From contig OZ037845.1 in NCBI GenBank assembly GCA_964035575.1, positions 62,001 to 126,000 of the forward strand: a stretch of DNA of 64,000 nucleotides, read 5' to 3'. Made by a program: the position numbers and the translations under genes. Shown in pieces: positions 7,728 to 36,857 of this stretch; the stretch's first letter is position 1, and the number at the start of each line of letters is the position of its first letter. The notes beneath the pieces are model-generated. The model made no database searches and was not told where the DNA came from. It saw only the letters and a list, made by a program, of their open reading frames with translations. The DNA comes from Rhynchopus sp. YZ270_cl-10. Taxonomy: Eukaryota.

Positions 7728-8021
7728 ACATACATAAAAAGTAATAAAAAAAGAAAAATGAAAGAAGTGGTAACAATCGGGGGTATTTTTGCGGGTTGGG
7801 TTTGGTGGGTATTTTTTGGGATTGTGGGTTTGGGGATATTAGTTTTGAACACAATACAAATGAAGCATGAAATATGAGAGAACAAAAACAAAGGAACATT
7901 CTATATTTCAATTTTTCCTCAAACCTCCCACACACACCCACACACACCCCTACAGAGTAGCCACAATATGTCCCTCAATAGAGAGAATTTTACCAGTCAG
8001 GTACATGCGAGGGGTTTTGCC

Positions 8022-8533: not shown

Positions 8534-8848
8534 TAGTGGCTTCATCGGAGCCATTGCCTCGACATATGGTGATAGTAAACTCCATGAATCGTAGTATACA
8601 AAAGGTTACTTGGGCAGCTGAAGTCTTTGGGGTACCTGCAGTCGGCCACATACACGATAATACTGCTAAACGTTCATAAATTTTCACACACGCAATAAAT
8701 ATAAACTCCACTTTAGCAACGTGAACTCAAATTCCAATAACTCACCTCACCAACAAGATTCCCTAAGAATAACACAATAGAACATTTTCGATACACCAGC
8801 CCGTAACACATCACACCAGCCTACCACATATGGTTGCTCACTTCTCGT

Positions 8849-9065
8849 GCGGGTTTGCGGGTTTGCGGGTTTGCGGGTTTGCGGGTTTGCGGGTTTGCGG
8901 GTTTGCGGGTTTGCGGGTTTGCGGGTTTGCGGGTTTGCGGGTTTGCGGGTTTGCGGGTTTGCGGGTTTGCGGGTTTGCGGGTTTGCGGGTTTGCGGGTTT
9001 GCGGGTTTGCGGGTTTTGCGGGTTTGCGGGTTTGCGGGTTTGCGGGTTTGCGGGTTTGCGGGTTT
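8849..9065 (+). repeat. (GCGGGTTT)27 tandem array
   Basis: Read directly; one unit has an extra T. Confidence 0.98.
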
Positions 9066-13166: not shown

Positions 13167-13378
13167 AGTTTCTTGAGAAATAGTTCACCTGTTTTTGGTG
13201 TGTGAGTACACAAATGCTATGAAAAGAGAAATGAGGGGTGAGCCAAGTTCAATTCATTTTTCTATTCAATTTTTTCGGCTTTCACATTTGTAAAAATGCA
13301 AAACCTTCATACAATAAAAAAAAATTCTGTTCACAACCACACCAGCCCCTCCTACATTTTAGCGAGCTTTCTTCTAGT

Positions 13379-13477
13379 GCGGGTTTGCGGGTTTGCGGGT
13401 TTGCGGGTTTGCGGGTTTGCGGGTTTGCGGGTTTGCGGGTTTGCGGGTTTGCGGGTTTGCGGGTTTGCGGGTTTGCG
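13379..13477 (+). repeat. (GCGGGTTT)12 tandem array
   Basis: Read directly. Confidence 0.98.
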
Positions 13478-14856
13478 AGAGGGGACCCTGGTGGGTTTGT
13501 TGCCCCGTTGACCAGCAGACGAGACAACGTCTGGCGTGTAACCTCCTAGTCGGCGCATCACCCGGGCTGCTCCACGGAGACAGTGGGTGGTGCGTGGTAC
13601 GGGGACGACAGTCCTCACCTAGCATCCGGAATTCCAGGTATGTCAACACACACTAGCAAAGGACACACAGGGGTGGCTGAGAGGTTGGTGTTTGGTAGTT
13701 GCCAATGGCGGCTTGCTGACGGGGACCTGGACCATCTCACTGGGTGACTGCTGTATCTGCATTGTGTGGTTTTTACTGCACGCTTGTGGCTGCTGTCAGG
13801 GCTATCTACGATGGGTGAGGCGCTTCTTCCGAACGTCTGCAGCGGCTGCGTTGGCCTTCGGGACTTCACGGATGCTGTCGGTACGCTCAGGAGATGTCGT
13901 CCTCCCTGGACCTTGGCTGGGTGTCTGCAGTGACGCACCGGGTGCGTCCACTGTTTGAATCCACAGGGGTGATCCACAGCCACAGAACTGGTCCGTCCAG
14001 GTCAGGGTGTGCCTCCCATGTAAAAGCCCCCATCAAAGACTTCTGTAGCCGCTCCTGTCCGCGTTGGAGTCTGGGTGACCGTTGCAACGGCCTCTAGGGA
14101 GAGAGAGGCCGGTGTAGTCAGGGACTACCCACATGGTGAGCACACTCGACGACTGCAAGCAACTGCACCGCTATTTGCTGCGGTGGTGCCTTTGTGAGCA
14201 GCACTCGTTCGATGTTGTGGCTCACATGTAACAGACTCCGACACTAGTGAGTGGTGACATAACCGCGACGGTTGGGATGTGAACAGGCTAGGCTGGTGAA
14301 TCTGTTAGGGAGTTGTGTCGGATGCATACTTGTGGGGAGTCACTCCCCTGCAGACAGGCGTGACCAACTTGCCGAGCAGAGGTCAGGTCGAGTAATCGGC
14401 TGGCTAACGGTCAAAGATCGCATTGGGTCGGCAGATTCATGCGGTTCAGACCGTCGGTTCCACCTCCGGGCGACTGGAGTGGTCAGCGCGAGCTGGCTGT
14501 GTCCCACCAGTGCGTGAAACCACAAACTGGGACGCATGGGATCGCTACAGACTGGGTCACCAGCCGGTCCTCTCAAGCAGAGGGCTCAATGTACAGTCGG
14601 GCCACAGTGAGTTACACACCCCGCGGACTTCGGAAGTTTCTGTGATACGGAAGAAGCCAACGGGTGGTAGTGAGCTGTGCTCTCGGTGGAAGGGCGTGTC
14701 TGAAAAGGACACAACCAGGAGACCGAGGGGCTGCTGGTCGGAAACACCCCAGGTATGTGTAAAAAGGGTGTAGGACGGCTAGCAGCGGAAAGGTCCTCAG
14801 CCTGACCTGCGCCTCCCCACTTCTTCTTCAGGGGAGGAGGGCAAAGGGGACAAGTG
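13478..14856 (+). ncRNA. 1.38-kb highly structured non-coding segment containing a group I ribozyme
   Basis: No credible ORF; many helices with G-U pairs on the + strand (13553-13563/13585-13595, 13601-13610/13895-13904, 13928-13953, 14089-14110, 14193-14226, 14334-14348). Confidence 0.75.
14252..14600 (+). ncRNA. Group I intron catalytic core (subgroup ID-like)
   Basis: P3 UGGUGAC 14252-58/GUCACCA 14556-62; P4 GACGGU 14267-72/ACCGUC 14450-55; P6 GGUUCCA 14456-62/UGGGAUC 14537-43; P7 C(A)GACUG 14548-54/CAGUCG 14594-99 with bulged A and G-binding G-C pair; P8 14566-86; J8/7 CAAUGUA. Confidence 0.88.
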
Positions 14857-17800
14857 ACCTGCAGCAGCACCGACAGCAACAGCAACAGCAGCAGCAGCAA
14901 CTGCAGCAACAACACTGTAGGTGGGGGTGAGCGAGGTATGCTGGTGTTCGGGGCCAGCCTTGCGGGGCGAGAAGGACAGAGTTACTGTGTGACGTTACGG
15001 GTGTGGGGGACCTTTATCACCCCCAATGTTCACATGGGGCGTGCAGAACATGGGCTTGGGTTTGACTGGTGGAGCATCCTTTGGGAACGCCTTTCTTCTC
15101 TGCGCCGACCAGACCCCCGCTGGGTAGCCGAGGCACCTGAGTGGGGTGTGTTTGTGTCTTTCGCGGTCCTGGACATGTGGAAGGACAGACGCGCCCCTAC
15201 CCTCAGTCACCTCATATTGTGGCTGGTGGGTAGGAGGGGGACCAGGAGGACGCGCCGAGGTCACAGGTCCTTGAACTGGACCAAGGCACAGGCGAGCAGG
15301 TTCCGTCGGCGCAAGGCGCCATGCAAGCGTCCGCCCTCTCAACTTTTCCGCAGGATAAGGGCAGCCGTTGTGAGAGTGGCTTTGCAGTGGGTGGCCATCT
15401 GGGCTCTGGTTTGCGTGGGGTATGAGCTTGGGAGATCGGCGCCACGGGCTTTGGGTTGTGCACTGATCCGGGACGCAGAGCTGCTGAGTGTGCTGCTGAG
15501 GAAGGGGCTCCTACAGGGCCGATACAGAGCACGTAGCGGGAGGCTGTGGTTGCGAGTACTTGCCAGCAGGGTGTGGGTTTTCATGCAGAGGTTGAGGCGA
15601 CCGGCGGGGACAGGGGACGGGTGGGAGCTGTCACCTCAGAGCATAAGCCTGGGGCCCGGGGCGCTGGCAGGTGGAGCAGACGGGGACATCAACCCGGAGG
15701 AGGCGGCAAACCTTGACGCATTCCTCGAGGTGCATGGGGGGAAGAGGGTGCCGAACGCAGCCAACGGCGAGTGCATGTACGTGGCCTTACTGGGTAAGAA
15801 GAACGCGCTGTACTTGGATGTCAGCAAAGCACGCACTGAGCTGGCTGACAGAGCGCGGGTCACGAAGGTGAAGACCGGTCTCAGACGCTACTTCGAGACC
15901 GAGGCACAGCTGTCAAGCTTCATTGACGGCCTCACCAACCCTGAGGTGTGGGGCAACCACCTCACCCTACACCTGGCAGCAAATGCATGGTCCACCACGA
16001 TAGCGGTAGTGCAGCCTGGGCCGAATCCAGTGGTGACGATCAACCCCGCAGCCTCATCGAAAGACTTGCGGACGCAGAAAGACCGCCGCGTCAGGGTAGT
16101 TTCACTCCTCAATAATCACTATGAGGAAGTGCAAATGGACCCAAAGAACGCCCTGGCAATGGTCCAGTCGGCCCCCTTCGCAGAAAGGCCTAACAGCAAC
16201 ACCCATCCCTGCCATGACGAAGGAGTCGCCTTCTCCTCTGGGGGCTGATGCACCGAGGCTCTTCTGCCCTGTTCCGTGTTGCAACGGAAGCAGTCTACAC
16301 CGTCCCCAGCCCTTCTCTGTTCCCGGCCTGCGCACACACATCGGTGCACACCTGTCTTCCGGCGACCACATCCCCCACGACACCCTCAACAAGTTGGGGT
16401 TAGGACAGTGTGAAGCGTGTGGGGGGATACGGTCGGCATCGAAGGAGACATGTCTTCAGTGTGCGAAACTGGTAAAGGCGATCGCAAAGCCCACACCCAG
16501 GGAACGCACCGCAGTGGAAAAGGCAGACGACGTTGACTTGCCGGAGTGGTGGGAGATAGCTCAAATCCCCATCAGGACAACAGATGCGATCCCCACGAGC
16601 ATCGACCGTCCAGCCGCTGTGGAGTTCACCCAGGCACTTGAGGATGTGGCCGCAGTTGGCGATGAGGCAAGCTGGAAACGTTTGTGCATGTTCGCGAAGC
16701 TGGTCCTACCGGCGAAGCGAGGTGGGAAGCACCTCAAGACGAAGGTGGCAGTCTTGCGGCAGAAGGATGTGGATGAGTGGAGAGAAGGTGAGATCGCAGC
16801 AATGTGGCGAGCAGCTGCGAATCGCACAGGCGGTACGAAGAAGGAGAAGGAGCGGAAGGAACCAACGTGGGAAGAAAGGGAGAAGGCGATGGTCCGGGAG
16901 GTGCGGAATGGGAGGATGGCAGCAGGGATGAGCCGCCTCCACAAGGGTGGGCTGGCAGAGCGTACTGAGGAATCCACAGACATCCTCCGCAGAAAGCACC
17001 CCCATGAGGAACCCCAACCTGCCACTTCTCTGCCGGAAATTGCTTCCGAGCCGCTGAAGCCGATCGCCGCCCTCAAAGCCATAAATAGCATGGCAAAGGG
17101 CTCTGCTCCAGGTCCCTTTGGTCTGCGCGGGGATCACCTCAAGGGGTGGATGGTCAAACACCCGGACCTGAACATCTTGCCACTGATGACGCAAGTCCTG
17201 GACCTGCTGCGACGCGGGAAAGCCCCCTCCGAGACAGCTATGTTCATGGCAGGAGCTACTCTGGTGGCGTTAAAGAAGGGTGACCAAGGCGACGTCCGCC
17301 CCATCTCTGCAGGCAACACACTTCGGCGAGTCGTGAGCAAGATCGAGGTGGCGTCTGTGAGGGAAAAGGCACGAGGAGTGCTGCTGCCAGGGAGACAAGT
17401 TGGGGTGGCGGTGGACGGTGGACTGGAAGCGGCGACAATGGTTGTGGCAGCATACGCAAAACGACACCAGGGGAGCGACAAAGTGATCGTACAGATTGAC
17501 TACGAGAACGCATTCAACAGCATCTTTCGCAAGACTTTTCTGGAAGCCACAAGGAAATATCTCCCGTCCATTTCACCGTGGGTCGAATGGTGCTACAACT
17601 CCCACACCGGGCTAGTGTATGGTGACGAGATGATCCCATCCACCAGAGGCGCGCAGCAAGGCGACCCCGCAGGGCCCCTACTCTTCTCCCTGGGGATCAA
17701 AGCACTGACAGACGAAGTGCGTGCAGTCCAGGGCATCGACTGTAGCATCTGGTACCTCGATGATGGGACGATCATGGGGAACCCAGAGGCGGTGGCTCGA

Positions 17801-20119
17801 GCGCTGGAGTTAGTGAGGACACGCAGTGCGGAGCTGGGGCTGAAGGTGAAGCTGTCAAAGTGTGAAGTCATCGCCCTAGGACAGCAGACTCCGTTGGACC
17901 TGGACAGAGCTGGCCTCCCCGTGTGCAGCCACACCACTGACTTGGCGGAGACTTGCTCAGCCTGTGAAGGAAAAGTGATGAGCGTGAAGTATGGAGGCTT
18001 TGCGTTCCTGGGGGCGCCAATCGGGGACGACGAGTACTGCGAAGCGTACATGGAGAAGAAGGTGGAGGAATTCGCGGTGCAACTGCGTCTGCTGCAGAAG
18101 GTGTCTGACTCGCAGGCTGGACTGACATTACTCCGTCAGTGCGAGGGGTTTGCACGCATGGTTTTCTACATGAGAGCCATTGGTCACGCGTGCACCCACA
18201 AGTACCTCAGCCAGTACGACAAGGAGGTAGACGCCGCCCTGGCCGCGCTTTTTGGTGATGAGGATGGAGGCCTGCCGGAAGAAGCACGGAGACAGGCCGC
18301 ACTGCCATGTAGGGTAGGGGGCATGGGCGTGCGCCGCATCCGCGACCACTGGACTGCAGCAGCCATGGGAGCAAGGAGCGGCCTGCACCAACTGTGCACC
18401 GAACTGGACCCCAGCTTCACCTGGGACGCCGAAGGATGGGAACGGACGGCAACGCTGTACAACGAGCAAGTGGCTGAAGGTGCTAGGATTGACCCCAAGC
18501 TGCAGCCAGCCGTCCCCCTGCGTCAACGTGATCTGTCTGCAGGGATCCTGGAGGAACAATTGCGGGACCTCTTCGTCAAGGGTGATGCGTACGACAAGGC
18601 GCGTCTCAATTCTCTGGCCCTCCCCCAAGCAGGGTCCTGGCTTACTGCACCCCCCACCTGGGAGCACTACATCCCTCCGATTGCATTCAAGGCCGCAGCC
18701 AGACTCCGCCTCCACCTCCCCATATACGCGGAGGGTGTCTCATGCAGGCAATGCAACCAGCCCATGGACACCAGGGGGGACCACATCTTCGCCTGCAGAA
18801 TGGGTGGGCATCGTATACTGCGACATAACTCAGTACGCGATTATGTGTATGGAGCAGCAAATGAGGCAGGTCTGAGCCCCATCCTGGAACCCAACCACCT
18901 CATCCTGGGCAACAACAAGCCCGCTGACATTCTGCTGTCCACAGGGGTCGGGGAGTCGAGAGGACGAGCTATCGATGTGACTGTGTGTGTGGACGCCGAC
19001 GTCAGCGTCGATGGTGCAGGGTGCCGCAGTCGCGAAGGGGTACGCGGCGACGAAGGCGGAAACTGCCAAGAGGAAGAAGCATGGTGACGCGTGTGCGGCG
19101 GAGCGGCTGGCGTTCACACCCTTCGCCCTGGAGACCACAGGAGGTCTGGGACCCGCGGCGGCGTCGATATGGCAGCAGATGCTCCGTTTCGCAGCGGACA
19201 GGAAGCTTGGGAACAGAGTGGAGATGTCACAGAGGTGGAATTGGGGGCTAGGGACGACGCTGCAGCGACAGATCGGGAAGGCCGCGACGGATCGAGGGTC
19301 TCTGACTGGTTGCCTGAGGGGTCCTCTGCGAGAGCGTGTGGACTTAGATCCCACCGTCGACCCGGAAGAGGGGGACTTGATACGCTTGCCCCCCGACCAT
19401 CTACCTAACCTGGAAGTGACAGACGACCACCAGGGAGACATCAGGGTGAGTGCGGAGGAGGAGCCGGAGACAGGCAACGAGAAGGAAACGGCGCCAGAGA
19501 CAGCAGCACAGGACCCAACCCCCCACAGCGAACTGGAGGCCAACTTGGTGAAGTGGGGGCTGTCCCGACCGCAGGTGCCCGTGCCGTTCCGAGTAGGAGA
19601 CTGTGCGTTCGACGCAGTGTGCTGGTCAGTGCGGAGCTGGAAGGTGGTGACATCGTCGACCCTTCGGTCCCTGGCGGTGGAGAGAGTGAAGAGAGATGCT
19701 GACCTGGCGAGAAATGCGATGCCCGACCTCGCGACCTGGGTGCGATGGATGAGCCTGGCAGGGAACAGGGATCGCAGGTCGTGGGCGGACCAGACAGCAC
19801 TGGCGGGTCTGGCACGGGCTTTGCAGGTAGTCATTGTGGCGGTCGTGTCATCGGACTCTAAGGTGCACATCCATAGACCAGCCAGCAAGTCGAACGGGGC
19901 CGTAGCAGTGCTGCACACAGGAGCTCACGAGGCTGGCCACTTCTCGCCGTTATGCATGACAGACAACACGTTTGCATATCACCGGAGGTGGCGTACGAGG
20001 CGCTGGACGCGTGGTGGGATCAGCGGGAGGAGCTGGGGCGCGTCGGAGGACGGCAGACGAGTCAGTACGGGGCGCTTAGGGCGGTCCTGGTGCTGATGAT
20101 GGAGGCGACCTTCAAATAG
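14857..20119 (+). pseudogene. Disrupted CRE-A polyprotein (OTU1, Zn finger, RT, RLE, OTU2)
   Basis: ORF pieces 14854-16248, 16121-19087, 18987-20096; RT QQGDPAGPLLF and WYLDDG; RLE RHNSVRD, KPADI, FALETTGG. Confidence 0.9.
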
Positions 20120-20450
20120 AAGGGCCTCGCGATTGGTTGTGATTGTGGTTTATGTGGGCACTGTTGCCCTTCCCTTCTCTGTTAGTTTCCCCCACCCCAA
20201 CTTTTGTGTGTAGCAACACCTGTTTAGTTCCCTGTTTCCTTTTTACCCCCAACCCCTCCCATTAGATACATGTGTGTAATCCCCCTGGTGTCAAGCCCCT
20301 TGTATGTAAATTCCAAATCTTCCCCCTCACAGAAAACGTCAGGAGTAAGCCAAGGAGGCGGTTTGTCTGTGGGCGTCGGCCTAGGAGTAAGCGACGGAGA
20401 TTTTTTCCCCCACCCCATCCCCTACACCATGGACTCGTAATGACATTACG

Positions 20451-20700
20451 TGACGAGGGACGAGGGAAATTACGTGGGAAATTACGCGCGCAATGACGTC
20501 GTCACGACGCGGGCACCCCCTCGTAATGACGACGTCATGACGTGGGGTTTTCCTCGTCACGACGACGGCATTACGACGTCATGACGAGGGGTGCCCTCGT
20601 AATTACGAGGGGACCCCTCGTAATTACGAGGGGTGCCCTCGTAATTACGAGGGGGTGCCCTCGTAATTACGAGGGGACCCCTCGTAATTACGAGGGGTGC
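20451..20700. repeat. Left subterminal palindromic repeats (CCCTCGTAATTACGAGGG and CGTCATGACG variants)
   Basis: About five tandem palindromes at 20594-20697; same motifs at the right end. Confidence 0.9.
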
Positions 20701-21385
20701 TCCCGTGGTCATTGTCTGGCTATTGCCTCCCAGGGAAAGGGACTCTCGAATTTTTTTTTTTGCCCCTAGAAAGGGCTAATTTCGACGATTTGAGGCCATT
20801 AAAAGCAAAATTTGATGCTTTTGAGCATCTGTGGGGGTCTAAAACGCGTTTTTGCGGTTTTTTTTCCTCCTTCCCCCATATTTTTCTTTACCGACTACTT
20901 TGGCTCAGCATAAAAAAAATTTTAAATAAAGGTCGAGATTTAGGTAGTGGCCAAGTAAAAGAACACAATTTTTTAATGGACCATCTGGGGGTACACAAAT
21001 ACGCAGTTCTCCTCTCAAAAACCACGGATATTTTACGATATCCTGTGTCCATTATAATACCGTAATCGTAAGAATTCTGGGACGTAACAAATCTGGGACA
21101 ATTGGGAAAAAATCTGAAACTTGGGACATTTTTACGTCCCAGCTTTTTACGATTACGGTATACCATGCAAAAAAGATTGTCCCCCTCCTCCCCCCCCAGT
21201 AGAGAAAAGAAGAAGAAAAAGACAGTTTCTGAGATATGTCTCATCTGTTTTTGATTCATGGCCAATTCTGACCGAATTGCCCTCGGTACGGCGACATCAT
21301 CCTTTTCGGAAAGTTCTCACTCCGTACTGCTTGTCTTTGCGGCGGTATCCTTCTTCCTTTTGTTCTGTCGTAGTCAGTCGGCGTT

Positions 21386-21528
21386 CTTAGTTCCTTAGTT
21401 CCTTAGTTCCTTAGTTCCTTAGTTCCTTAGTTCCTTAGTTCCTTAGTTCCTTAGTTCCTTAGTTCCTTAGTTCCTTAGTTCCTTAGTTCCTTAGTTCCTT
21501 AGTTCCTTGGTTCCATAGTTCCTTAGTT
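21386..21528 (+). repeat. (TAGTTCCT)n 8-bp array, about 17 units
   Basis: Read directly, just upstream of transposon ORF1. Confidence 0.97.
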
Positions 21529-21604
21529 TCTCAGTATTCTTTTTTGTGGTTGTTTACATTTAAACACACAACAGGATTACACAAAACCTCTCTCTCTTTC
21601 CACC

Positions 21605-22789
21605 ATGCCGAGAGTACCTAAGAAGAAGGCACCCAAGGCTCCGGCGAAGAACGGGCCGTCGACGCCTCTCCCTCAGTCCCCACCTGCGACCTCGCCCACC
21701 GATCAAGTGCCAGTTCCCGTCCTTCTCGCGACGCCACCCACCTCCAACCCTTCTTCCCAGACGAGCACCCCTGCGGGGAAAAAGTCGAGTGGTGATACTG
21801 GTACCCCCCTGCAGCGTGCTTTTTGTGAAATTTTTTTAATTCACCACGAGAAGAACACCCTCACCCTCCCCAAGCTCGCTGTTCTGTTCAACCGTTTGTT
21901 CGACAAAGTGTGCCAAGGGCCGCAGATGTCGAAGGCGGTGGCAGCGCGGTTCACGGACTGGCAGGGTCACCTCCAGCAACGTGAGGTGAACCAGCTCAGC
22001 GAGGCCAACAAGCAACTCCCGCGCGCTATTCGTGTGGGGGCAACGACATTCGTTAATGTCGGCTTGCGGGACACCCTTGCGTCGCTCGCCACTGGCCAGC
22101 ACACCAACGCTTTGCAAATCGTGCGCAGCGCTGCCGAAACGGCAGGAAAGTCCGAGGAGCTGCAGGGCCGGATGACGGTCTTGTATGACAAGACACACGG
22201 CGCATCGGCACCCAACACTGAACAGCCTGCATCTTGCAAACGGCCCCTCATCCCGTATCCTCCTCAGAGCGTTTGCGGGGCGAACATGAGGGACGGACAC
22301 CAGGTCTTTTCCGTTTTCTATCTAGTGGGGCCCAATGTCACTATTCAGGAGTGTTCGCTCTCCGGGTCAGAGGTGACACTCTCCATTCTGAGAAACTGCA
22401 AGTTCCAGGGGGAGCTGCAGAACGGAAAGTACCGTTTCTCTTACTGTGTCCCCCCTGACCACGCCATCGACCACACTCGTCTGCCCGAAGCGGCGCTTGA
22501 CGGAGCGATGCTCCTCGTGCATGTTCCCTTGATTTCCCTGGCCGCCCCCAAGCAGGCCATCCTCAGCACTACCGCGTTCGACTACAACGTGGTACTTCCC
22601 CCCGAAGCCGCCCCAACCGTGGCACCGGTGGTTCTGCATACGCCAGAGGGAGAGGGAGAGGGCGAACAGGACCCGGCCAATCAAGCGGATGAATCCGATG
22701 AAGAGGGTGAGGGTGCAGTACATGGTCAACTAGATGATCTTGGGTTCATGTCGATGTCAAGCTTTTCTGTGCAGGTTCAGAAACCCTAG
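21605..22789 (+). CDS. Transposon accessory protein (394 aa): basic/Pro-rich N-terminus, helical domain, putative alpha-crystallin/HSP20-like domain, acidic tail
   Basis: GKYRFSYCVPPDHAID..LPEAALDGAMLLVHVP resembles the ACD C-terminal pattern F.R.F.LP..VD....A.L..GVL.I.VP. Confidence 0.7.
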   Translation: MPRVPKKKAPKAPAKNGPSTPLPQSPPATSPTDQVPVPVLLATPPTSNPSSQTSTPAGKKSSGDTGTPLQRAFCEIFLIHHEKNTLTLPKLAVLFNRLFDKVCQGPQMSKAVAARFTDWQGHLQQREVNQLSEANKQLPRAIRVGATTFVNVGLRDTLASLATGQHTNALQIVRSAAETAGKSEELQGRMTVLYDKTHGASAPNTEQPASCKRPLIPYPPQSVCGANMRDGHQVFSVFYLVGPNVTIQECSLSGSEVTLSILRNCKFQGELQNGKYRFSYCVPPDHAIDHTRLPEAALDGAMLLVHVPLISLAAPKQAILSTTAFDYNVVLPPEAAPTVAPVVLHTPEGEGEGEQDPANQADESDEEGEGAVHGQLDDLGFMSMSSFSVQVQKP

Positions 22790-23058
22790 CCCGTGTCTAA
22801 GTTCTGCATCATTTCTATGGTGTTAAAATTCCCTGTTCAAGTCCCCTTTCTTAATTAATATGTCCTTTTTCTGTCACTTTGACAAGAGAAAAACGCTTTT
22901 TTGTCTTACCTTTACACACCGCAAAGTAAAAGAAGTCTTCCCAACTCCCTCGAGCTTTGATTATATTCCAAACTCCACTCACTCTCCTCTAACTCCCACA
23001 ACTGTTTGCAACACACACAGACCTGTGACACACGTTTTCATTTTTTTTTTTTTTTTAA

Positions 23059-24655
23059 ATGAAATGCAAGAGGGCAGACCCCGAGAGGCAGCGTGAGAAG
23101 CAGAGGGCCCGCACCCTTGGAGACGCGCTGCTCCGTGCGCGCTTACGCCACGGCCTCAGTCGCCACTGCATGGCAAAGCTTGCCCGCGCGATGCACGAGG
23201 CAAACCGCGCAAAGGGCCTCGCTCCTGTGCAGTTCGGTTTGTCTCGCAGCACGATCGCGAAGAGGGAGAGGCTCCTCCAGGCTCAGGCATGGAGGCTGCA
23301 GCAGAACGTGATGCAGGTCACGGCGTTTCTTCTTCGTCGCGTCCCTCGTGTCGCGTTCACCCCTCCGAGCAAGCTCGAGAAGTGGCCCATCACCTCCCTC
23401 CTCAGCATGGACGGCTACACCCCGCGGAACTCCTTGCGTACGAGAAATGCGCGCTTTCGGATGGCTGTGTGCCTACAAGCCGGAGCCTACGGCACCAGCC
23501 CCCTCACCATCATCGATGTCCCGAAGTCGGCGTTCAAGGGCATTGACCTGGGCACGCTTCTCGCTGCATCGCAGCAGACGGTGTACCGTCTGGAGCAAGA
23601 CGGGGGTATTGTGTTCCGGATCCCTATTAATAGGGTCGGTGGGGATCACGCGGAGCTCTGGGTGTTGTTCAAGGGGATGGGAGGAAGGGGTCACAGGAGT
23701 GCATTTTGCTGTACCCGCAGCGAGGATTGGCTCTCCACTTTGCACTCGTGCAAGCGCTGTTCGATTCAAGAGCTCAGCGCACACTTCCATTGCCCCCTCG
23801 CAGCCCACCTCCACACTCCTGCGTACACGGTGACCCCCCCCCCTCCACGACATCAAGGGCATCATCACCATGCTCCTTCATGTCCACTCGGGAGGACCAT
23901 CCGCCATAAAGGATGTCCTCGGGGTGGATTCGTTACAGAACGTGACCACCTCTCTGTGCCGAACAATGTTGGCGCAGCTGCTTGAGGCAGAAGCACCCAC
24001 CGACCCAGAGAGACTTGCTTGCGTGGCAGTTGAGTGCCTGGTCGCCTTTCGGTACCAGGATATCCCCATTCGATACCACGTATCCGGCACCAACGGTCAT
24101 GAGTTCGTGGCCAGTCTCCTTGCGTACCACGTCCTCATATTCGTGTTTGAGTGGTGGTTGCCTGGGTCGACCTGGCACAAAGGTGGTACGTACTTTCATA
24201 GTGCGAATCACTGGTTCGACGTGGAGGATTGCCAACTTTTTAGTCAATCCGATGAAGCGTTCGAGAGGGAGAACGGAGAGCGGAAGCGTCGTGCGTGCGT
24301 GGTCGGTCCCGCCACTTACGAGCGCGACCAGCTCATGTTTGAGATTGCGAACCTGCCCAATAGAGGATTGAGTGTGCTGCCTATGGAGCGTGAGTGCATT
24401 GCGTGGGGATACGACTCTTTCGCTCCTTTCTGCCGTTCGTGTGTCTGCAAGGGTGATTGGGGGAAGCGGCTGACGGCACTGCGTTCCAGACTGGTTTCCT
24501 TCGGCTTCTCACACTCGAGCGCGAGAGATGACGACTTTTGTTATCTTGGCTCTGATCTCCGGCAACGCAGAAACAAGTCCATGCGCGTTTGTGTTTGTGA
24601 CGCGACCAAGGTGAAGTTTGACGCCAAGGTTAAGAAGGCGTTTAATTTGAAATAA
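23059..24655 (+). CDS. RAG1/Transib-like DDE transposase (~531 aa after removing one C from the C10 run at 23834-23843)
   Basis: LLSMDGY (D1), VGGDHAEL..GMGGRGHRSAFCC (D2 and Zn ligands), PPLHDIKG, TYFHSANHW, SDEAFERENGERKR (E); compare RAG1 SCDG, GYDEK, ALHCDIG, NYFHKTLAHV, ASEGNESGNK. Confidence 0.85.
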
Positions 24656-26130
24656 AAGAGATAAATACTTGTGTGCCTCGTATGCGAGGAGAGGTCTCTT
24701 CCGAGCCCATTGTCGCACCCTTTGACCCCGTTACACCAGATTACACCCCATTACACCTGAATTTCCTCGTGGCCAGTACACCCATTATCGAGTCATGGTT
24801 TCAGTTCCCGTAATTTTGCTCTTTTTTTAAATTTTTTCAATTAAAAAATGTCGTCACGAAGATAAAATTTTTTGTACCTTCTGTGCCTGCGTCCCTGAGG
24901 CGTTTGCACTATCAACTTCACCTTTTTTTTTTTTTTGTAAATCAAGCTACTTGACAATGGACATAGAAACGACGGAGGGTGCGTGCCCGCCAGCTTCACT
25001 CATTGTTCTTTCTTCATAGTTCAGCAACAAAAGAATGGGGTAATATTTCTTGTTTTTTTCTGTTCCTTTTTCCACCACACCTCCAAAAACACCCTCACAG
25101 GATGACAGTATACAAAAACATGATAAACGATGAAAACCCGCAACTCTACGCCACAGGTTCTTTCTTCCTCTGGGAAACTCTTTGTCAGTCACTGCTATAG
25201 CCATTTAACCCAGGGAGCATAGCTAGTGCAAGAAATTCGACTTCGGGATCCGGAAAGTCTGTCCTCTGCTCTTGCGGAGGACTAGGCACAAGAAAATATT
25301 GCGTTCCCCCAGGAAACTAATTTTTGTCACAGTAATTTTTGCCCAGGGCATGCTCTTGAAGCATGGCGGCTTGGTGTGAGAAGGGGCAGTGTGTTGTTTT
25401 GTTCTAGATTTCAACGGTTGTTAGAACGAGTCAAGTGGATGCTTATCTAAACACTGACTTTAGTACAGACCCGAGAGATCACACATGACTTTGAGGAAAG
25501 AACAAAGCAATGCATCTGTACCCGCACGCCAGGTTGTAGTTACTTCAGAATTTTCTTAAGTTTGCGCGAAAGAGAGCGGGGGCAACTCCTTTGTATCATA
25601 AGCCCGCTGTGCAGAACAAAGCGAGGAACCTTAAAACACTACCTGCGTGGTGGCTGAATTCACATCCCTTAGAATTACCAGAATTCAGCCTTTGTTGAAG
25701 TAACGTACATACTTGTATGTGCGTGTCACGCTTCTCCATCCTTAAATGGGTGCACTGCTTCACTGCAGCGGGTAAGCCTCTCTCGACTAGTGCAAACTTA
25801 AGAATTTTCTGCTGTAACTTACCAAAATCGATTTTCTTTCACCCCAAACACCCGCAACACCCCACCTGCTACTTCGGTAGCCTGTGTTGTTGGGAGTTGG
25901 TTCTCATGTTGATCCCCAGTGTTTTGCACTGCTTCTTCTGAGCCCAACGCTGTTTGGCCTGTCGACGTAATAAATACGAAGACAGGGCGGCGGTGCCAAC
26001 AATTTTCCGATGATGTAACGTTTTATCTGATTGATTTATCGTTTGATATACCTTGTGTGTGCTACTTCATGCACACCCAAGCAAGGTATATTGAACGGTA
26101 CTTTCAAGCGATACTTCGTTATGTCATTGG

Positions 26131-26438
26131 GGGTACCTGGGTACCTGGGTACCTGGGTACCTGGGTACCTGGGTACCTGGGTACCTGGGTACCTGGGTAC
26201 CTGGGTACCTGGGTACCTGGGTACCTGGGTACCTGGGTACCTGGGTACCTGGGTACCTGGGTACCTGGGTACCTGGGTACCTGGGTACCTGGGTACCTGG
26301 GTACCTGGGTACCTGGGTACCTGGGTACCTGGGTACCTGGGTACCTGGGTACCTGGGTACCTGGGTACCTGGGTACCTGGGTACCTGGGTACCTGGGTAC
26401 CTGGGTACCTGGGTACCTGGGTACCTGGGTACCTGGGT
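26131..26438 (+). repeat. (GGGTACCT)38 8-bp array
   Basis: Read directly; abuts the right subterminal repeats. Confidence 0.98.
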
Positions 26439-26443
26439 GCCCA

Positions 26444-26577
26444 CGTCATGACGACGTCATGACGAGGTAATTACGAGGGGGTGCCCTCGTAATTACCTCG
26501 TCATGACGAGGGCACCCCCTCGTAATTACGAGGGGGTGCCCTCGTCAAGGCACTCGTAATTACCTCGTCATGACGCG
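26444..26577. repeat. Right subterminal palindromic repeats of the DNA transposon
   Basis: CGTCATGACG and CTCGTAATTACGAG motifs matching the left end. Confidence 0.9.
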
Positions 26578-27121
26578 CGTAATGTCATTACGAGTCCATG
26601 GTGTACGAGTTCCATGGGGGGTCGCTACTGGCGTTAATCATCCAAACAAAAAAGACTACAAGAGACAAAACAAAAGTAACAAGAAAGGAACTTCGTATTG
26701 TAAAAAGAAAGCCCCATCCCGCCCCTTCCTCCCCTCCAGAACCAGCTGGGCACCAATACTGGAAATACAGCAAAACCACACAGACTGGACAGTCTATATT
26801 CTCCCCTGCCTCTCCCGTGTTAATGTTCACCCCTCCTTTATCCCAAATTGTCATAGAGCTAAATATAGTTGTATGCCTCGCTTCGCTCGGCAAACAACGA
26901 TACATAATAGGGCGACATGCTGATGACAAATATCTCCCTCGTTTAATTCACTTTTGTGCCTCGTTCTAACTAAACCGGCACATGTACTGATTGTAAGACT
27001 TTTGGCCCTCACTTCGCTCGGACCAAGCGCCTTTCATGTGCATTATAAACGTACCCCCCTTGCCCTGTCCAGTTTGATGTGGAACAAAAAAAGTCGAGCC
27101 TAGGGCTAAGTTGAACAACAC

Positions 27122-27170
<49 letters not shown>

Positions 27171-27343
27171 GGGGCACACACGTTTTGCTACACACTACCC
27201 CATCTTGTCCTTTGCTTCTCCCCTTATCCCCTTTCCCCCACTTGTTTTCCCCCTTGTGTGGGTCCTACCTGTCGCCTCCTAGTGGCGTGTCCTGGGCAGA
27301 GAGAAGGCCGTTGAGTAGTTCCTCTCTGGCGAAGTGCAGGTAG
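27171..27343 (+). ncRNA. HDV-like self-cleaving ribozyme at the element 5' end
   Basis: P1 GGGGCAC 27171-77/GUGUCCU 27287-93 with G1-U wobble; P2 CUACCUGU 27265-72/GCAGGUAG 27336-43; P3 GCC/GGC with L3 UCCUAGU; P1.1 GG 27294-95; P4 AGAGAG/CUCUCU; J4/2 GGCGAA with catalytic C27330. Confidence 0.9.
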
Positions 27344-27403
27344 AGACGTGTATTTTGTCTTCCTTGTCCTTTTGTTTTTTACTGTTTTGACTTTTTTGTT
27401 TTC

Positions 27404-30400
27404 TTGGTGGTGAAGATGTGCAGGTGGAGTGCCCAGCTTTGGGCTATGGTGCTCCTGTGTGGAGCCATGGATGATGGCGGGGGTGACAGCCGAAGCTGGT
27501 GCAGCAACATGAGCAACATGCGCAGCAGCAGCAGCATGAGCAGGAGCAGCATGAGCAGCAGCATGAGCAGCAGCAGCATGTGCAGCAGCAGCATGAGCAG
27601 CAGCAGCATGAGCAGCAGCATCGTGAGCAGGAGCACTGCCATCAACATCAGTACCTCCCACGGTTGCGGCAGGCACGTATCGCGAGTGGGCTCCTCAACA
27701 CCAACTCAGCACTCTCAGGTACCACGTTCTCGCTGCAGCAACATGAGCAGCCATGACTGGAGTGATGGCCTCTATGGCAGCGTCTACTGCAACAATAGCG
27801 GCTCCAACAACCACACCAGCAACATCTACACCTGCAGCAATGGCCGCAAGGGCTTCATGTGCAGCGGCTACAGAAGCTGCAGGTGCACCCCCATTCCCCC
27901 CCATTATTACCCCAAAAAGAGGCCTGTGCCCAACAACCCAAGCGGCTGCAGCTTTGATAGCAGCAACAACAACAACAACTACAACAACGGTGGCAGACAC
28001 TGGATGCGTGGGCGGACACTAGATGTGCGGGCGGACAGCATCAGCAGCAACAACAGCAACTACAACAACAGTGGCAGACAGTGGATGCGCGGGCGGACAC
28101 TAGATGTGCGGGCGGGCAGCATCAGCAGCAACAACAACAACAACTACAACAACAGTGGCAGACAGTGGATGCGCGGGTGGACACTAGATGTGCGGGCGGA
28201 CAGCATCAGCAGCAACAACAGCAACTACAACAACGGTGGCAGACAGCGGATGCGCGGGCGGACACAGGATGTGCGGGCGGACAGTATCAGCAGCAACAAC
28301 AGCAACTACAACAACAACCGTAACACCAGCAACAACAACAGCATCAGCAGCACCTGCAGCAGCACCGACAGCAACAGCAACAGCAGCAGCAGCAACTGCA
28401 GCAACAACACTGTAGGTGGGGGTGAGCGAGGTATGCTGGTGTTCGGGGCCAGCCTTGCGGGGCGAGAAGGACAGAGTTACTGTGTGACGTTACGGGTGTG
28501 GGGGACCTTTATCACCCCCAATGTTCACATGGGGCGTGCAGAACATGGGCTTGGGTTTGACTGGTGGAGCATCCTTTGGGAACGCCTTTCTTCTCTGCGC
28601 CGACCAGACCCCCGCTGGGTAGCCGAGGCACCTGAGTGGGGTGTGTTTGTGTCTTTCGCGGTCCTGGACATGTGGAAGGACAGACGCGCCCCTACCCTCA
28701 GTCACCTCATATTGTGGCTGGTGGGTAGGAGGGGGACCAGGAGGACGCGCCGAGGTCACAGGTCCTTGAACTGGACCAAGGCACAGGCGAGCAGGTTCCG
28801 TCGGCGCAAGGCGCCATGCAAGCGTCCGCCCTCTCAACTTTTCCGCAGGATAAGGGCAGCCGTTGTGAGAGTGGCTTTGCAGTGGGTGGCCATCTGGGCT
28901 CTGGTTTGCGTGGGGTATGAGCTTGGGAGATCGGCGCCACGGGCTTTGGGTTGTGCACTGATCCGGGACGCAGAGCTGCTGAGTGTGCTGCTGAGGAAGG
29001 GGCTCCTACAGGGCCGATACAGAGCACGTAGCGGGAGGCTGTGGTTGCGAGTACTTGCCAGCAGGGTGTGGGTTTTCATGCAGAGGTTGAGGCGACCGGC
29101 GGGGACAGGGGACGGGTGGGAGCTGTCACCTCAGAGCATAAGCCTGGGGCCCGGGGCGCTGGCAGGTGGAGCAGACGGGGACATCAACCCGGAGGAGGCG
29201 GCAAACCTTGACGCATTCCTCGAGGTGCATGGGGGGAAGAGGGTGCCGAACGCAGCCAACGGCGAGTGCATGTACGTGGCCTTACTGGGTAAGAAGAACG
29301 CGCTGTACTTGGATGTCAGCAAAGCACGCACTGAGCTGGCTGACAGAGCGCGGGTCACGAAGGTGAAGACCGGTCTCAGACGCTACTTCGAGACCGAGGC
29401 ACAGCTGTCAAGCTTCATTGACGGCCTCACCAACCCTGAGGTGTGGGGCAACCACCTCACCCTACACCTGGCAGCAAATGCATGGTCCACCACGATAGCG
29501 GTAGTGCAGCCTGGGCCGAATCCAGTGGTGACGATCAACCCCGCAGCCTCATCGAAAGACTTGCGGACGCAGAAAGACCGCCGCGTCAGGGTAGTTTCAC
29601 TCCTCAATAATCACTATGAGGAAGTGCAAATGGACCCAAAGAACGCCCTGGCAATGGTCCAGTCGGCCCCCTTCGCAGAGCTTGACCCGAAAGGCCTAAC
29701 AGCAACACCCATCCCTGCCATGACGAAGGAGTCGCCTTCTCCTCTGGGGGCTGATGCACCGAGGCTCTTCTGCCCTGTTCCGTGTTGCAACGGAAGCAGT
29801 CTACACCGTCCCCAGCCCTTCTCTGTTCCCGGCCTGCGCACACACATCGGTGCACACCTGTCTTCCGGCGACCACATCCCCCACGACACCCTCAACAAGT
29901 TGGGGTTAGGACAGTGTGAAGCGTGTGGGGGGATACGGTCGGCATCGAAGGAGACATGTCTTCAGTGTGCGAAACTGGTAAAGGCGATCGCAAAGCCCAC
30001 ACCCAGGGAACGCACCGCAGTGGAAAAGGCAGACGACGTTGACTTGCCGGAGTGGTGGGAGATAGCTCAAATCCCCATCAGGACAACAGATGCGATCCCC
30101 ACGAGCATCGACCGTCCAGCCGCTGTGGAGTTCACCCAGGCACTTGAGGATGTGGCCGCAGTTGGCGATGAGGCAAGCTGGAAACGTTTGTGCATGTTCG
30201 CGAAGCTGGTCCTACCGGCGAAGCGAGGTGGGAAGCACCTCAAGACGAAGGTGGCAGTCTTGCGGCAGAAGGATGTGGATGAGTGGAGAGAAGGTGAGAT
30301 CGCAGCAATGTGGCGAGCAGCTGCGAATCGCACAGGCGGTACGAAGAAGGAGAAGGAGCGGAAGGAACCAACGTGGGAAGAAAGGGAGAAGGCGATGGTC

Positions 30401-32593
30401 CGGGAGGTGCGGAATGGGAGGATGGCAGCAGGGATGAGCCGCCTCCACAAGGGTGGGCTGGCAGAGCGTACTGAGGAATCCACAGACATCCTCCGCAGAA
30501 AGCACCCCCATGAGGAACCCCAACCTGCCACTTCTCTGCCGGAAATTGCTTCCGAGCCGCTGAAGCCGATCGCCGCCCTCAAAGCCATAAATAGCATGGC
30601 AAAGGGCTCTGCTCCAGGTCCCTTTGGTCTGCGCGGGGATCACCTCAAGGGGTGGATGGTCAAACACCCGGACCTGAACATCTTGCCACTGATGACGCAA
30701 GTCCTGGACCTGCTGCGACGCGGGAAAGCCCCCTCCGAGACAGCTATGTTCATGGCAGGAGCTACTCTGGTGGCGTTAAAGAAGGGTGACCAAGGCGACG
30801 TCCGCCCCATCTCTGCAGGCAACACACTTCGGCGAGTCGTGAGCAAGATCGAGGTGGCGTCTGTGAGGGAAAAGGCACGAGGAGTGCTGCTGCCAGGGAG
30901 ACAAGTTGGGGTGGCGGTGGACGGTGGACTGGAAGCGGCGACAATGGTTGTGGCAGCATACGCAAAACGACACCAGGGGAGCGACAAAGTGATCGTACAG
31001 ATTGACTACGAGAACGCATTCAACAGCATCTTTCGCAAGACTTTTCTGGAAGCCACAAGGAAATATCTCCCGTCCATTTCACCGTGGGTCGAATGGTGCT
31101 ACAACTCCCACACCGGGCTAGTGTATGGTGACGAGATGATCCCATCCACCAGAGGCGCGCAGCAAGGCGACCCCGCAGGGCCCCTACTCTTCTCCCTGGG
31201 GATCAAAGCACTGACAGACGAAGTGCGTGCAGTCCAGGGCATCGACTGTAGCATCTGGTACCTCGATGATGGGACGATCATGGGGAACCCAGAGGCGGTG
31301 GCTCGAGCGCTGGAGTTAGTGAGGACACGCAGTGCGGAGCTGGGGCTGAAGGTGAAGCTGTCAAAGTGTGAAGTCATCGCCCTAGGACAGCAGACTCCGT
31401 TGGACCTGGACAGAGCTGGCCTCCCCGTGTGCAGCCACACCACTGACTTGGCGGAGACTTGCTCAGCCTGTGAAGGAAAAGTGATGAGCGTGAAGTATGG
31501 AGGCTTTGCGTTCCTGGGGGCGCCAATCGGGGACGACGAGTACTGCGAAGCGTACATGGAGAAGAAGGTGGAGGAATTCGCGGTGCAACTGCGTCTGCTG
31601 CAGAAGGTGTCTGACTCGCAGGCTGGACTGACATTACTCCGTCAGTGCGAGGGGTTTGCACGCATGGTTTTCTACATGAGAGCCATTGGTCACGCGTGCA
31701 CCCACAAGTACCTCAGCCAGTACGACAAGGAGGTAGACGCCGCCCTGGCCGCGCTTTTTGGTGATGAGGATGGAGGCCTGCCGGAAGAAGCACGGAGACA
31801 GGCCGCACTGCCATGTAGGGTAGGGGGCATGGGCGTGCGCCGCATCCGCGACCACTGGACTGCAGCAGCCATGGGAGCAAGGAGCGGCCTGCACCAACTG
31901 TGCACCGAACTGGACCCCAGCTTCACCTGGGACGCCGAAGGATGGGAACGGACGGCAACGCTGTACAACGAGCAAGTGGCTGAAGGTGCTAGGATTGACC
32001 CCAAGCTGCAGCCAGCCGTCCCCCTGCGTCAACGTGATCTGTCTGCAGGGATCCTGGAGGAACAATTGCGGGACCTCTTCGTCAAGGGTGATGCGTACGA
32101 CAAGGCGCGTCTCAATTCTCTGGCCCTCCCCCAAGCAGGGTCCTGGCTTACTGCACCCCCCACCTGGGAGCACTACATCCCTCCGATTGCATTCAAGGCC
32201 GCAGCCAGACTCCGCCTCCACCTCCCCATATACGCGGAGGGTGTCTCATGCAGGCAATGCAACCAGCCCATGGACACCAGGGGGGACCACATCTTCGCCT
32301 GCAGAATGGGTGGGCATCGTATACTGCGACATAACTCAGTACGCGATTATGTGTATGGAGCAGCAAATGAGGCAGGTCTGAGCCCCATCCTGGAACCCAA
32401 CCACCTCATCCTGGGCAACAACAAGCCCGCTGACATTCTGCTGTCCACAGGGGTCGGGGAGTCGAGAGGACGAGCTATCGATGTGACTGTGTGTGTGGAC
32501 GCCGACGTCAGCGTCGATGGTGCAGGGTGCCGCAGTCGCGAAGGGGTACGCGGCGACGAAGGCGGAAACTGCCAAGAGGAAGAAGCATGGTGA
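27404..32593 (+). CDS. CRE-A polyprotein part 1: Ser/Asn-rich repeats, hydrophobic segment, OTU1, Zn finger, reverse transcriptase, first half of RLE
   Basis: NGECMYVAL..WGNH..NHYE; CPVPCC..HIGAH; APGPFGLR, VRPISAG, IDYENAFN, QQGDP, YLDD; CRQC..H..C, RHN, PADI. Confidence 0.92.
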   Translation: MVVKMCRWSAQLWAMVLLCGAMDDGGGDSRSWCSNMSNMRSSSSMSRSSMSSSMSSSSMCSSSMSSSSMSSSIVSRSTAINISTSHGCGRHVSRVGSSTPTQHSQVPRSRCSNMSSHDWSDGLYGSVYCNNSGSNNHTSNIYTCSNGRKGFMCSGYRSCRCTPIPPHYYPKKRPVPNNPSGCSFDSSNNNNNYNNGGRHWMRGRTLDVRADSISSNNSNYNNSGRQWMRGRTLDVRAGSISSNNNNNYNNSGRQWMRGWTLDVRADSISSNNSNYNNGGRQRMRGRTQDVRADSISSNNSNYNNNRNTSNNNSISSTCSSTDSNSNSSSSNCSNNTVGGGERGMLVFGASLAGREGQSYCVTLRVWGTFITPNVHMGRAEHGLGFDWWSILWERLSSLRRPDPRWVAEAPEWGVFVSFAVLDMWKDRRAPTLSHLILWLVGRRGTRRTRRGHRSLNWTKAQASRFRRRKAPCKRPPSQLFRRIRAAVVRVALQWVAIWALVCVGYELGRSAPRALGCALIRDAELLSVLLRKGLLQGRYRARSGRLWLRVLASRVWVFMQRLRRPAGTGDGWELSPQSISLGPGALAGGADGDINPEEAANLDAFLEVHGGKRVPNAANGECMYVALLGKKNALYLDVSKARTELADRARVTKVKTGLRRYFETEAQLSSFIDGLTNPEVWGNHLTLHLAANAWSTTIAVVQPGPNPVVTINPAASSKDLRTQKDRRVRVVSLLNNHYEEVQMDPKNALAMVQSAPFAELDPKGLTATPIPAMTKESPSPLGADAPRLFCPVPCCNGSSLHRPQPFSVPGLRTHIGAHLSSGDHIPHDTLNKLGLGQCEACGGIRSASKETCLQCAKLVKAIAKPTPRERTAVEKADDVDLPEWWEIAQIPIRTTDAIPTSIDRPAAVEFTQALEDVAAVGDEASWKRLCMFAKLVLPAKRGGKHLKTKVAVLRQKDVDEWREGEIAAMWRAAANRTGGTKKEKERKEPTWEEREKAMVREVRNGRMAAGMSRLHKGGLAERTEESTDILRRKHPHEEPQPATSLPEIASEPLKPIAALKAINSMAKGSAPGPFGLRGDHLKGWMVKHPDLNILPLMTQVLDLLRRGKAPSETAMFMAGATLVALKKGDQGDVRPISAGNTLRRVVSKIEVASVREKARGVLLPGRQVGVAVDGGLEAATMVVAAYAKRHQGSDKVIVQIDYENAFNSIFRKTFLEATRKYLPSISPWVEWCYNSHTGLVYGDEMIPSTRGAQQGDPAGPLLFSLGIKALTDEVRAVQGIDCSIWYLDDGTIMGNPEAVARALELVRTRSAELGLKVKLSKCEVIALGQQTPLDLDRAGLPVCSHTTDLAETCSACEGKVMSVKYGGFAFLGAPIGDDEYCEAYMEKKVEEFAVQLRLLQKVSDSQAGLTLLRQCEGFARMVFYMRAIGHACTHKYLSQYDKEVDAALAALFGDEDGGLPEEARRQAALPCRVGGMGVRRIRDHWTAAAMGARSGLHQLCTELDPSFTWDAEGWERTATLYNEQVAEGARIDPKLQPAVPLRQRDLSAGILEEQLRDLFVKGDAYDKARLNSLALPQAGSWLTAPPTWEHYIPPIAFKAAARLRLHLPIYAEGVSCRQCNQPMDTRGDHIFACRMGGHRILRHNSVRDYVYGAANEAGLSPILEPNHLILGNNKPADILLSTGVGESRGRAIDVTVCVDADVSVDGAGCRSREGVRGDEGGNCQEEEAW
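27960..28410 (+). repeat. Four ~81-84-bp coding repeats (WMRGRTLDVRADSISSNNSNYNN) in a CAG/CAA-rich tract
   Basis: Read directly in the DNA and translation. Confidence 0.9.
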
Positions 32594-34427: not shown

Positions 34428-35249
34428 AAGGGCCTCGCGATTGGTTGTGATTGTGGTTTATGTGGGCACTGTTGCCCTTCCCTTCTCTGTTATTTTCCCC
34501 CACCCCAACTTTTGTGTGTAGCAACACCTGTTTAGTTCCCTGTTTCCTTTTTACCCCCAACCCCTCCCATTAGATACATGTGTGTAATCCCCCTGGTGTC
34601 AAGCCCCTTGTATGTAAATTCCAAATCTTCCCCCTCACAGAAAACGTCAGGAGTAAGCCAAGGAGGCGGTTTGTCTGTGGGCGTCGGCCTAGGAGTAAGC
34701 GACGGAGATTTTTTCCCCCACCCCATCCCCTACGAGTTCCATGGGGGGTCGCTACTGGCGTTAATCATCCAAACAAAAAAGACTACAAGAGACAAAACAA
34801 AAGTAACAAGAAAGGAACTTCGTATTGTAAAAAGAAAGCCCCATCCCGCCCCTTCCTCCCCTCCAGAACCAGCTGGGCACCAATACTGGAAATACAGCAA
34901 AACCACACAGACTGGACAGTCTATATTCACCCCTGCCTCTCCCGTGTTAATGTTCACCCCTCCTTTATCCCAAATTGTCATAGAGCTAAATATAGTTGTA
35001 TGCCTCGCTTCGCTCGGCAAACAACGATACATAATAGGGCGACATGCTGATGACAAATATCTCCCTCGTTTAATTCACTTTTGTGCCTCGTTCTAACTAA
35101 ACCGGCACATGTACTGATTGTAAGACTTTTGGCCCTCGCTTCGCTCGGACCAAGCGCCTTTCATGTGCATTATAAACGTACCCCCCTTGCCCTGTCCAGT
35201 TTGATGTGGAACAAAAAAAAGTCGAGCCTAGGGCTAAGTTGAACAACAC

Positions 35250-35296
<47 letters not shown>

Positions 35297-35303
35297 TAAA
35301 AGT

Positions 35304-35305
<2 letters not shown>

Positions 35306-36770: not shown

Positions 36771-36804
36771 CCTGTAAAAGTCATATGGGGCATACTTTTG
36801 CGCC

Positions 36805-36807
<3 letters not shown>

Positions 36808-36857
<50 letters not shown>

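Follow-up and report, generated by a model that had tools for sequence, protein, structure and literature searches.

A predicted group I intron of subgroup ID type joined inside the open reading frame of a CRE-like retrotransposon in nuclear DNA of Rhynchopus

Here, we describe a segment of DNA from Rhynchopus sp. YZ270_cl-10 that, judged from its sequence, is a group I intron core of subgroup ID type with predicted splicing activity and that is joined inside the open reading frame (ORF) of a retrotransposon rather than serving as its leader. The stretch that was analyzed, here called the window, comprises 64,000 nucleotides (assembly GCA_964035575.1, contig OZ037845.1, positions 62,001 to 126,000), and all positions below are those of the window. 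The window holds a ribozyme core, a terminal G, and a junction at the best guide site, with no endonuclease; contigs from other samples supply the guide, and the ends of assembled pieces from these samples point to an empty allele of the site. A known ribozyme class is thus found in an undescribed home, at a junction that looks ribozyme made. We consider it probable that this joint was made by the ribozyme on RNA and then copied into the chromosome by the retrotransposon's reverse transcriptase (RT).

Setting and features

The window has the character of eukaryote-like repeat DNA and contains several non-LTR elements as well as short arrays of perfect repeats. Upstream of the segment, at 1902-7727, lies a Helitron-type ORF of the Rep-helicase kind. 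Perfect arrays of different 8- and 13-mers adjoin element ends (8848-9065, 13378-13477, 21386-21528, 26131-26438, and 46794-47439). The bin of one of these repeats, TGCGGGTT, has very high contig depth in three runs, and the repeat may be of a satellite or telomere type.

The initial annotation had placed the segment between a (TGCGGGTT)n array and a 5'-truncated retrotransposon copy, and both flanks are confirmed. The segment is itself cut at its 5' end, and in the four runs compared the intron contigs continue at 13476 into sequence other than the array. The features, all on the plus strand, are as follows, with the evidence for each in parentheses.

13378..13477, (TGCGGGTT)n array, flanking the window's intron copy and outside the intron (TRF)
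13476..14856, predicted group I intron of subgroup ID type, without an ORF, 5'-truncated by at least 30 nt (run contigs, core model, relatives)
25-20 nt upstream of 13476, guide sequence of the intron, missing from the window (contigs of other runs)
13546..13623, conserved 5' peripheral domain with a 6-bp hairpin, 13601-06/13611-16 (alignment with L025; covarying hairpin)
13640..14281, large structured insertion of about 640 nt, not in L025 (fold versus shuffles; L025 comparison)
14291..14299, P3 5' strand, which forms 9 bp with 14557-14565; the next 105 nt or so, in J3/4, form hairpins (homology with L025, local fold)
14407..14544, P4, P5, and P6 domain (sequence, core-model match)
14548..14599, P7 (bulged A14549, G14550-C14598), P3 3' strand, P8, and J8/7 (sequence, core-model match)
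14600..14856, P9 domain up to the terminal G14856 (fold versus shuffles; last 7 nt as in the first intron of L028)
14857..27169, 3' exon, that is, the CRE-like non-LTR copy 1 with poly(A) (sequence comparison of copies)
16182 and 19980, deletions of 11 nt and 801 nt, respectively, in copy 1 (comparison with copy 2)
About 20426-26603, inverted-repeat element within the 3' tail of copy 1 (sequence)
27170..35292, copy 2, full length and intron-less (run contig starts, simulation)

The ribozyme core and its fold

The claim of a complete, correctly ordered group I core is borne out: P3, P4, P6, P7, and P8, with the guanosine-binding pair and the bulged A, are all present in the sequence, and the three core motifs singled out earlier are found at 14448, 14540, and 14588. 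As read from the sequence, P4 pairs 14407-12 with 14449-54 (6 bp) and P5 pairs 14416-23 with 14439-46 (8 bp); P6 joins 14455-62 to 14537-44. P7 consists of C14548-G14599, the bulged A14549, and G14550-C14598, continued by A-U, C-G, U-A, and G-C pairs, and P8 (14566-73/14579-86, 8 bp) is followed by one unpaired C and then by J8/7, AAUGUAC, at 14588-94. Based on homology with the metagenome locus L025, the best register for P3 is 14291-99/14557-65 (9 bp), which leaves J3/4 with an insertion of about 105 nt that forms hairpins; a 7-bp register at 14397-14403 is also possible and was dropped in favor of this one.

Rfam as a whole gives no match in the window at the gathering score, and RF00028, the model that the initial annotation had proposed as a check, is not among the seven weak matches at an E value of 10 or less. 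This miss is not a valid refutation of the core, because RF00028 misses this core. A model of our own, R1, was made with a short calibration from 25 of 29 distinct ID-type cores, with the window excluded and L008, L024, L025, and L027 left out. R1 matches the window once, at 14395-14600 (54.1 bits; E = 1.1e-11), a result that is partly circular in that the cores had been fetched with a window-derived pattern. That pattern, composed of two window motifs, returned 35 loci, 23 of them in viral contigs and 12 in assemblies of prokaryotes, and the P4/P6 word AGACCGUCG, which is not in the pattern, is present in 35 of the 35 printed stretches. The ID-like subgroup, as first proposed, is thus supported by the ID core words and, with the same partial circularity, by the match to our ID-core model.

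Beyond the core, 13 distinct versions of the hairpin at 13601-13616 (that of the window and 12 from among 68 core contexts) were compared, and 78 of their 78 cells are paired, with several pair types per position. Such conservation with changing pair types argues that the 5' part belongs to the intron. The insertion at 13640..14281 folds with a z score of -3.0 (0 of 20 shuffles as stable) and the P9 domain with a z score of -3.1 (2 of 200 shuffles as stable); the first 165 nt of the segment fold no better than shuffles (z score of -1.3). The absence of a homing endonuclease is upheld, as none of the 9 frames scanned (of 29 listed) has a Pfam match below an E value of 0.04.

Intron ends and guide sequence

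Twelve runs from 8 studies contain the segment or part of it, and 8 of these runs contain at least half of its words; X9 to X12 hold small shares. Four runs, one per study, were compared in detail: X1, X3, X6, and X8. In all four, the intron contigs continue for 49-58 nt 5' of 13476, with identical letters that are not those of the array, indicating that the window's intron copy is 5'-cut. The upstream letters common to the four runs include GCUGCU followed by AACAGG. Does this hexamer have the properties of a guide? Among 13 distinct relatives, the six bases preceding AA(C/U)AGG pair with an upstream hexamer (5 Watson-Crick pairs) in 12, compared with 4 of 78 control hexamers; the one exception, L004, is a mitochondrial locus. 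Because this positional rule holds so widely among relatives and so seldom among controls, we assign GCUGCU as the guide. At the other end, the intron shares its last 7 nt with the first of the introns in L028, which interrupts the Rpb2 gene of a giant virus, and this identity marks G14856 as the terminal G.

A strict guide-matching site is also found inside the intron, at 14197-14206, and may be a site of circularization or mis-splicing.

The CRE-like element

The element is present as two tandem copies, between which a comparison of 5.1 kb shows a single substitution and a single gap of 11 nt. Contigs of three runs (X1, X3, and X8) begin at 27168-27171, which places the 5' end of the element at about 27170. 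The element has a single long ORF with an RVT_1 match (E = 3e-18), a poly(A) tail, and, after the RT, motifs that we take to be a CCHC motif and a PD-type restriction-like endonuclease. By this layout and these motifs, it is a CRE-like non-LTR retrotransposon; the CRE label itself comes from the initial annotation and draws its support from ORF layout and motifs. In each copy, the reading frame shifts within the endonuclease region, at a run of TG (18980-18992 and 32486-32498), whereas the relative P0110 reads through. Either the enzyme was therefore provided by a different copy of the element or the shift arose afterward. No relatives of the element's RT were found in viral contigs; an Atlas search with the RT returned a mixture of eukaryote taxa, and one with the 2644-aa gene returned no usable match.

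Several further observations concern the element and its surroundings. In the ORF at 27344-32593, an OTU-like domain precedes the RT (E = 2e-4, just below the cutoff). The element of about 6.2 kb at 20426-26603 is bounded by long inverted ends that are palindromic and encloses perfect arrays of 8-mers and three ORFs with no Pfam match. A 13-nt direct repeat (35293-35305 and 36771-36811) surrounds a truncated minus-strand element and is followed by a short hairpin resembling the first bases of copy 2, which may reflect a shared target site.

The junction

G14856 is joined directly to 14857, the equivalent of position 28352 in the intron-less copy 2. The six bases preceding 28352 in copy 2 are AGCAGC, which would form a full 6-bp P1 with the guide GCUGCU, and the four bases after 28351/28352 pair with GGGU just upstream of the guide, as a P10 of 4 bp. 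How special is this position? Copy 2 has 8070 positions, of which 33 fit a strict P1; a single one of these, 28352, fits the 4-bp P10 as well, a rule that was chosen after the junction had been seen; with wobble allowed, 82 of these positions fit P1 and 3 fit both P1 and P10. Strict P1 sites are locally dense, at 27 in the 1021 positions of the repeat-rich part of the element. In the frame of 1749 codons at 27344-32593, the empty site separates codon 336 from codon 337, within a Ser/Asn-rich, N-terminal part of low complexity that is perhaps untranslated. With the exon taken to be the same as copy 2, base -1 is a C, which gives a C-G pair at the 5' splice site, where the usual pair is U.G. Of 12 relatives, 5 have U.G, another 5 (one capsid-gene site) have G opposite C, and the remaining 2 have C opposite A.

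In total, the guide and the terminal G both match the junction, and the ribozyme would therefore behave as an intron within the ORF. The initial annotation had listed no rRNA or tRNA exon; the nuclear, non-rDNA setting stands, but the segment is not exonless, as the retrotransposon ORF serves as its exon.

Relatives of the intron

A 26-letter pattern returned three metagenome loci of 50-57% GC (L024, L025, and L026). In L025, a Ty3/gypsy pol gene is interrupted between its RNase H and integrase parts by an intron of 595 nt (1818-1224, minus strand), which has a 6-bp P1, a U.G pair at its 5' splice site, and a G as its terminal base. From the boundaries of this intron, the coding pieces on its two sides are predicted to lie one residue apart, and they do so in all 38 of the intron-less relatives that were compared (the best 38 of 99). 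L025 thus holds a precise intron inside another retrotransposon ORF, from the same intron lineage, and is a cleaner example than the window. The ID-type cores of L024 (3352-3653, minus strand) and L026 (419-780) are similar, GC balanced, and extended by a long insertion in P8; each lies upstream of a long ORF whose RNase H-like match, to RVT_3, is weak (E = 0.004, below the cutoff).

Over 88 conserved positions in 51 cores, L025 is identical to the window at 74 and L024 at 71, followed at 70 by the viral loci L063 and L043 and the mitochondrial-type locus L035, so that the margin is small. Based on sequence comparison, the nearest relatives do not appear to be mitochondrial but to be other GC-rich introns (one of them in gypsy pol) and the introns of giant viruses. 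For the link to giant viruses, the peripheral motifs in common carry more weight than this count.

ID-type introns are frequent in or beside the capsid, Rpb2, and PolB genes of giant viruses (L002, L027, L028, and L043-L089). One such locus, L028, has three introns in one Rpb2 region (5550-8800) together with an intein-like match, and several giant-virus introns have 5' sites other than U.G. One specific pattern found no loci in viral contigs; the two loci returned by a second, L041 and L042, were rejected as chance matches in coding DNA. The 12 matches in prokaryote assemblies, bacterial and archaeal (L029-L040), are AT-rich, organelle-type cores, two of them with cob or cox1 flanks, and are probably eukaryotic contamination of the named assemblies. 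Judged by their flanking peptides, several of the loci returned occupy cob and cox1 positions that correspond to sites 393 and 715, which PMC7595605 lists for subgroup ID.

Origin of the joint

How could the intron have come to be joined to copy 1? In the mechanism that we favor, the guide of a free linear intron would base-pair with the AGCAGC of the retrotransposon RNA, and the intron's terminal G would attack the next bond, that is, carry out the first step of reverse splicing. The product would be an intron-3' exon-poly(A) RNA, on which target-primed reverse transcription would begin at the poly(A) and end before the first 30 or more nt of the intron had been copied. No target-site duplication for copy 1 is visible in the window. 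The initial annotation had suggested mobilization by the CRE RT, and the sequence supports copying by this enzyme as probable.

Comparison with other samples bears on whether the intron is new to this site. Simulated unitigs predict that an empty allele would give a contig start at 28287, and X1 and X8 each show a contig that overhangs 28411 by 124 nt, which is a start at exactly 28287. Judged from these piece ends, with letters in repeats skipped, site 28351/28352 is inferred to be empty in X1 and X8. Intron pieces in X1, X3, and X8 end at 14857; the skipped zone starts at 14859, and elsewhere pieces reach the edge of the zone. Base +2 therefore likely differs in these three runs, where the intron would continue differently. 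The intron itself is nearly unchanged, with 1 difference in 1382 nt in X1. The empty site in two runs and the differing continuation in three would fit a recent move, by reverse splicing and reverse transcription, into this site from another home, a proposal to which we give about an even chance. The intron's usual home was not located in the four runs compared. In X1, the intron lies on a 1500-nt contig with short flanks, and the X1 and X8 contigs both start 58 nt upstream; a separate, short, multicopy home in other samples is possible. As a candidate for the usual site, we rejected the AGC-rich tract at 27516-27624, where X1 and X8 contigs break and copy 2 alone predicts no break, because variation in repeat length explains these breaks equally well.

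An intron-3' exon-poly(A) RNA also arises from the first forward-splicing step of a resident intron, and the same ribozyme-made joint could have this history. The intron would then normally reside at 28351/28352, with copy 1 being a retrocopy of unspliced RNA or of a splicing intermediate and copy 2 a retrocopy of spliced RNA. That 28351/28352 is the unique best guide match and falls between codons is in keeping with such residence, as is contig depth: the intron stands at 0.82, 0.91, 0.89, and 0.83 of the element's 5' part in the four runs (0.47-0.86 of the element body), a weak measure, since it covers listed pieces only, one high piece of four was dropped per group in X6, and contig depth is not copy number. 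These values hint weakly that intron and element are about equally frequent. The apparently empty site in X1 and X8 and the seemingly different continuation of the intron in X1, X3, and X8 speak against residence, which we regard as possible but rather improbable.

RTs are also known to join RNAs by switching templates, as in chimeras of the U6-L1 type. Could the enzyme have jumped from retrotransposon RNA to free intron RNA with no catalysis by the ribozyme? A free linear intron ends in the terminal G, and an enzyme that landed on its 3' end would likewise leave an exact joint. Such a jump leaves unexplained, however, why the joint lies at the best guide match among 8070 positions, and we consider it unlikely.

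Quite unlikely, in our view, is an accident of another kind, in which the segment would be a passive organellar or viral insert (a NUMT or EVE) or the product of a chimeric assembly. ID-type cores are common in mitochondria and giant viruses, and the junction 14856/14857 is not seen in the four runs compared. However, the segment has a GC content of 58%, compared with 19-39% for AT-rich organelle-type loci (the viral locus L022 is at 41%); organellar or viral flanks were looked for, and none is present on either side; and an accident would hardly land on both a terminal G and the best guide site. Least probable is that the segment is a ribozyme leader co-opted by the element, as the initial annotation had offered, or a separate nonautonomous ribozyme element merely fused to copy 1: the short X1 contig and the common 58-nt start in X1 and X8 would fit a short multicopy unit, but no ribozyme is present where the element itself begins, at about 27170, the guide and the terminal G agree with the junction, and L025 is a plain intron.

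Returning to the joint made by the ribozyme and copied by the RT, we can place it in a wider proposal. We posit that an endonuclease-free lineage of ID introns related to those of giant viruses has colonized unrelated nuclear retrotransposons (the CRE-like element here and Ty3/gypsy in L025), spreading by guide-directed reverse splicing with the help of their RTs, and that the window records a fresh jump. This broader scenario may be right or wrong with roughly equal probability.

Comparison with known systems

Our literature search, which did not extend to most subscription papers and preprint supplements, found no report of a group I intron in a retrotransposon. HDV-like ribozymes at the 5' ends of R2 likewise attach a ribozyme to a non-LTR element with a restriction-like endonuclease. 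The R2 ribozyme, however, is a small self-cleaving leader at the true 5' end, whereas the window has a splicing ribozyme away from the 5' end.

The fungal mitochondrial ID introns of PMC7595605 have, in the accessible part of that source, the same P4, P6, P7, and J8/7 words as the window. The window motifs occur at least 45 and at least 84 times in its supplementary sequences; the passages that hold the motifs give no subgroup label, and elsewhere in its available text the paper uses subgroup models for ID. In contrast to these introns, that of the window is nuclear, GC rich, and ORF-less, has large insertions, and is hosted by a retrotransposon. Closer in several respects are the group I introns of giant viruses (PMC7019647 in its accessible portion; L002, L027, L028, and L043-L077), which share the ID-type core, AACAGG after the guide, and a hairpin with a GACA loop. 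They differ in lying in or beside conserved viral genes (capsid, Rpb2, and PolB), some with an endonuclease nearby; for chlorovirus introns, the available text of PMC7019647 names group IB only. These likenesses suggest giant viruses as a source, and the window intron represents a nuclear ribozyme class that RF00028 screens miss.

A near-precedent for a group I intron in a mobile element of nuclear DNA is found in the Polinton-like viruses of protists (PMC12220804, in the parts open to view). Their introns, of 309-376 nt, were found with RF00028 and have a DNA virus-like host without an RT. Bacterial IStrons also couple a group I intron to a transposon, as far as the accessible text of PMC10690162 describes them. 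They are bacterial, however, and move by DNA transposition, and their intron encloses the transposon; in the window, the intron is joined inside the element's ORF.

Nuclear rDNA introns share the nuclear location, and reverse splicing has been proposed for their mobility (PMC3679873, accessible text); the host in the window is instead a retrotransposon. According to the same text, nuclear group I introns occur exclusively in rRNA genes, a restriction repeated in the available portions of PMC9223047 and PMC8395846, and the full route of reverse splicing, reverse transcription, and integration is without evidence. If the joint arose as we propose, the window brings the target RNA and an RT together in one place, and this long-proposed RNA route becomes directly testable. 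If the colonization of retrotransposons is real as well, these introns would supply the natural evidence for the complete route that has so far been missing.
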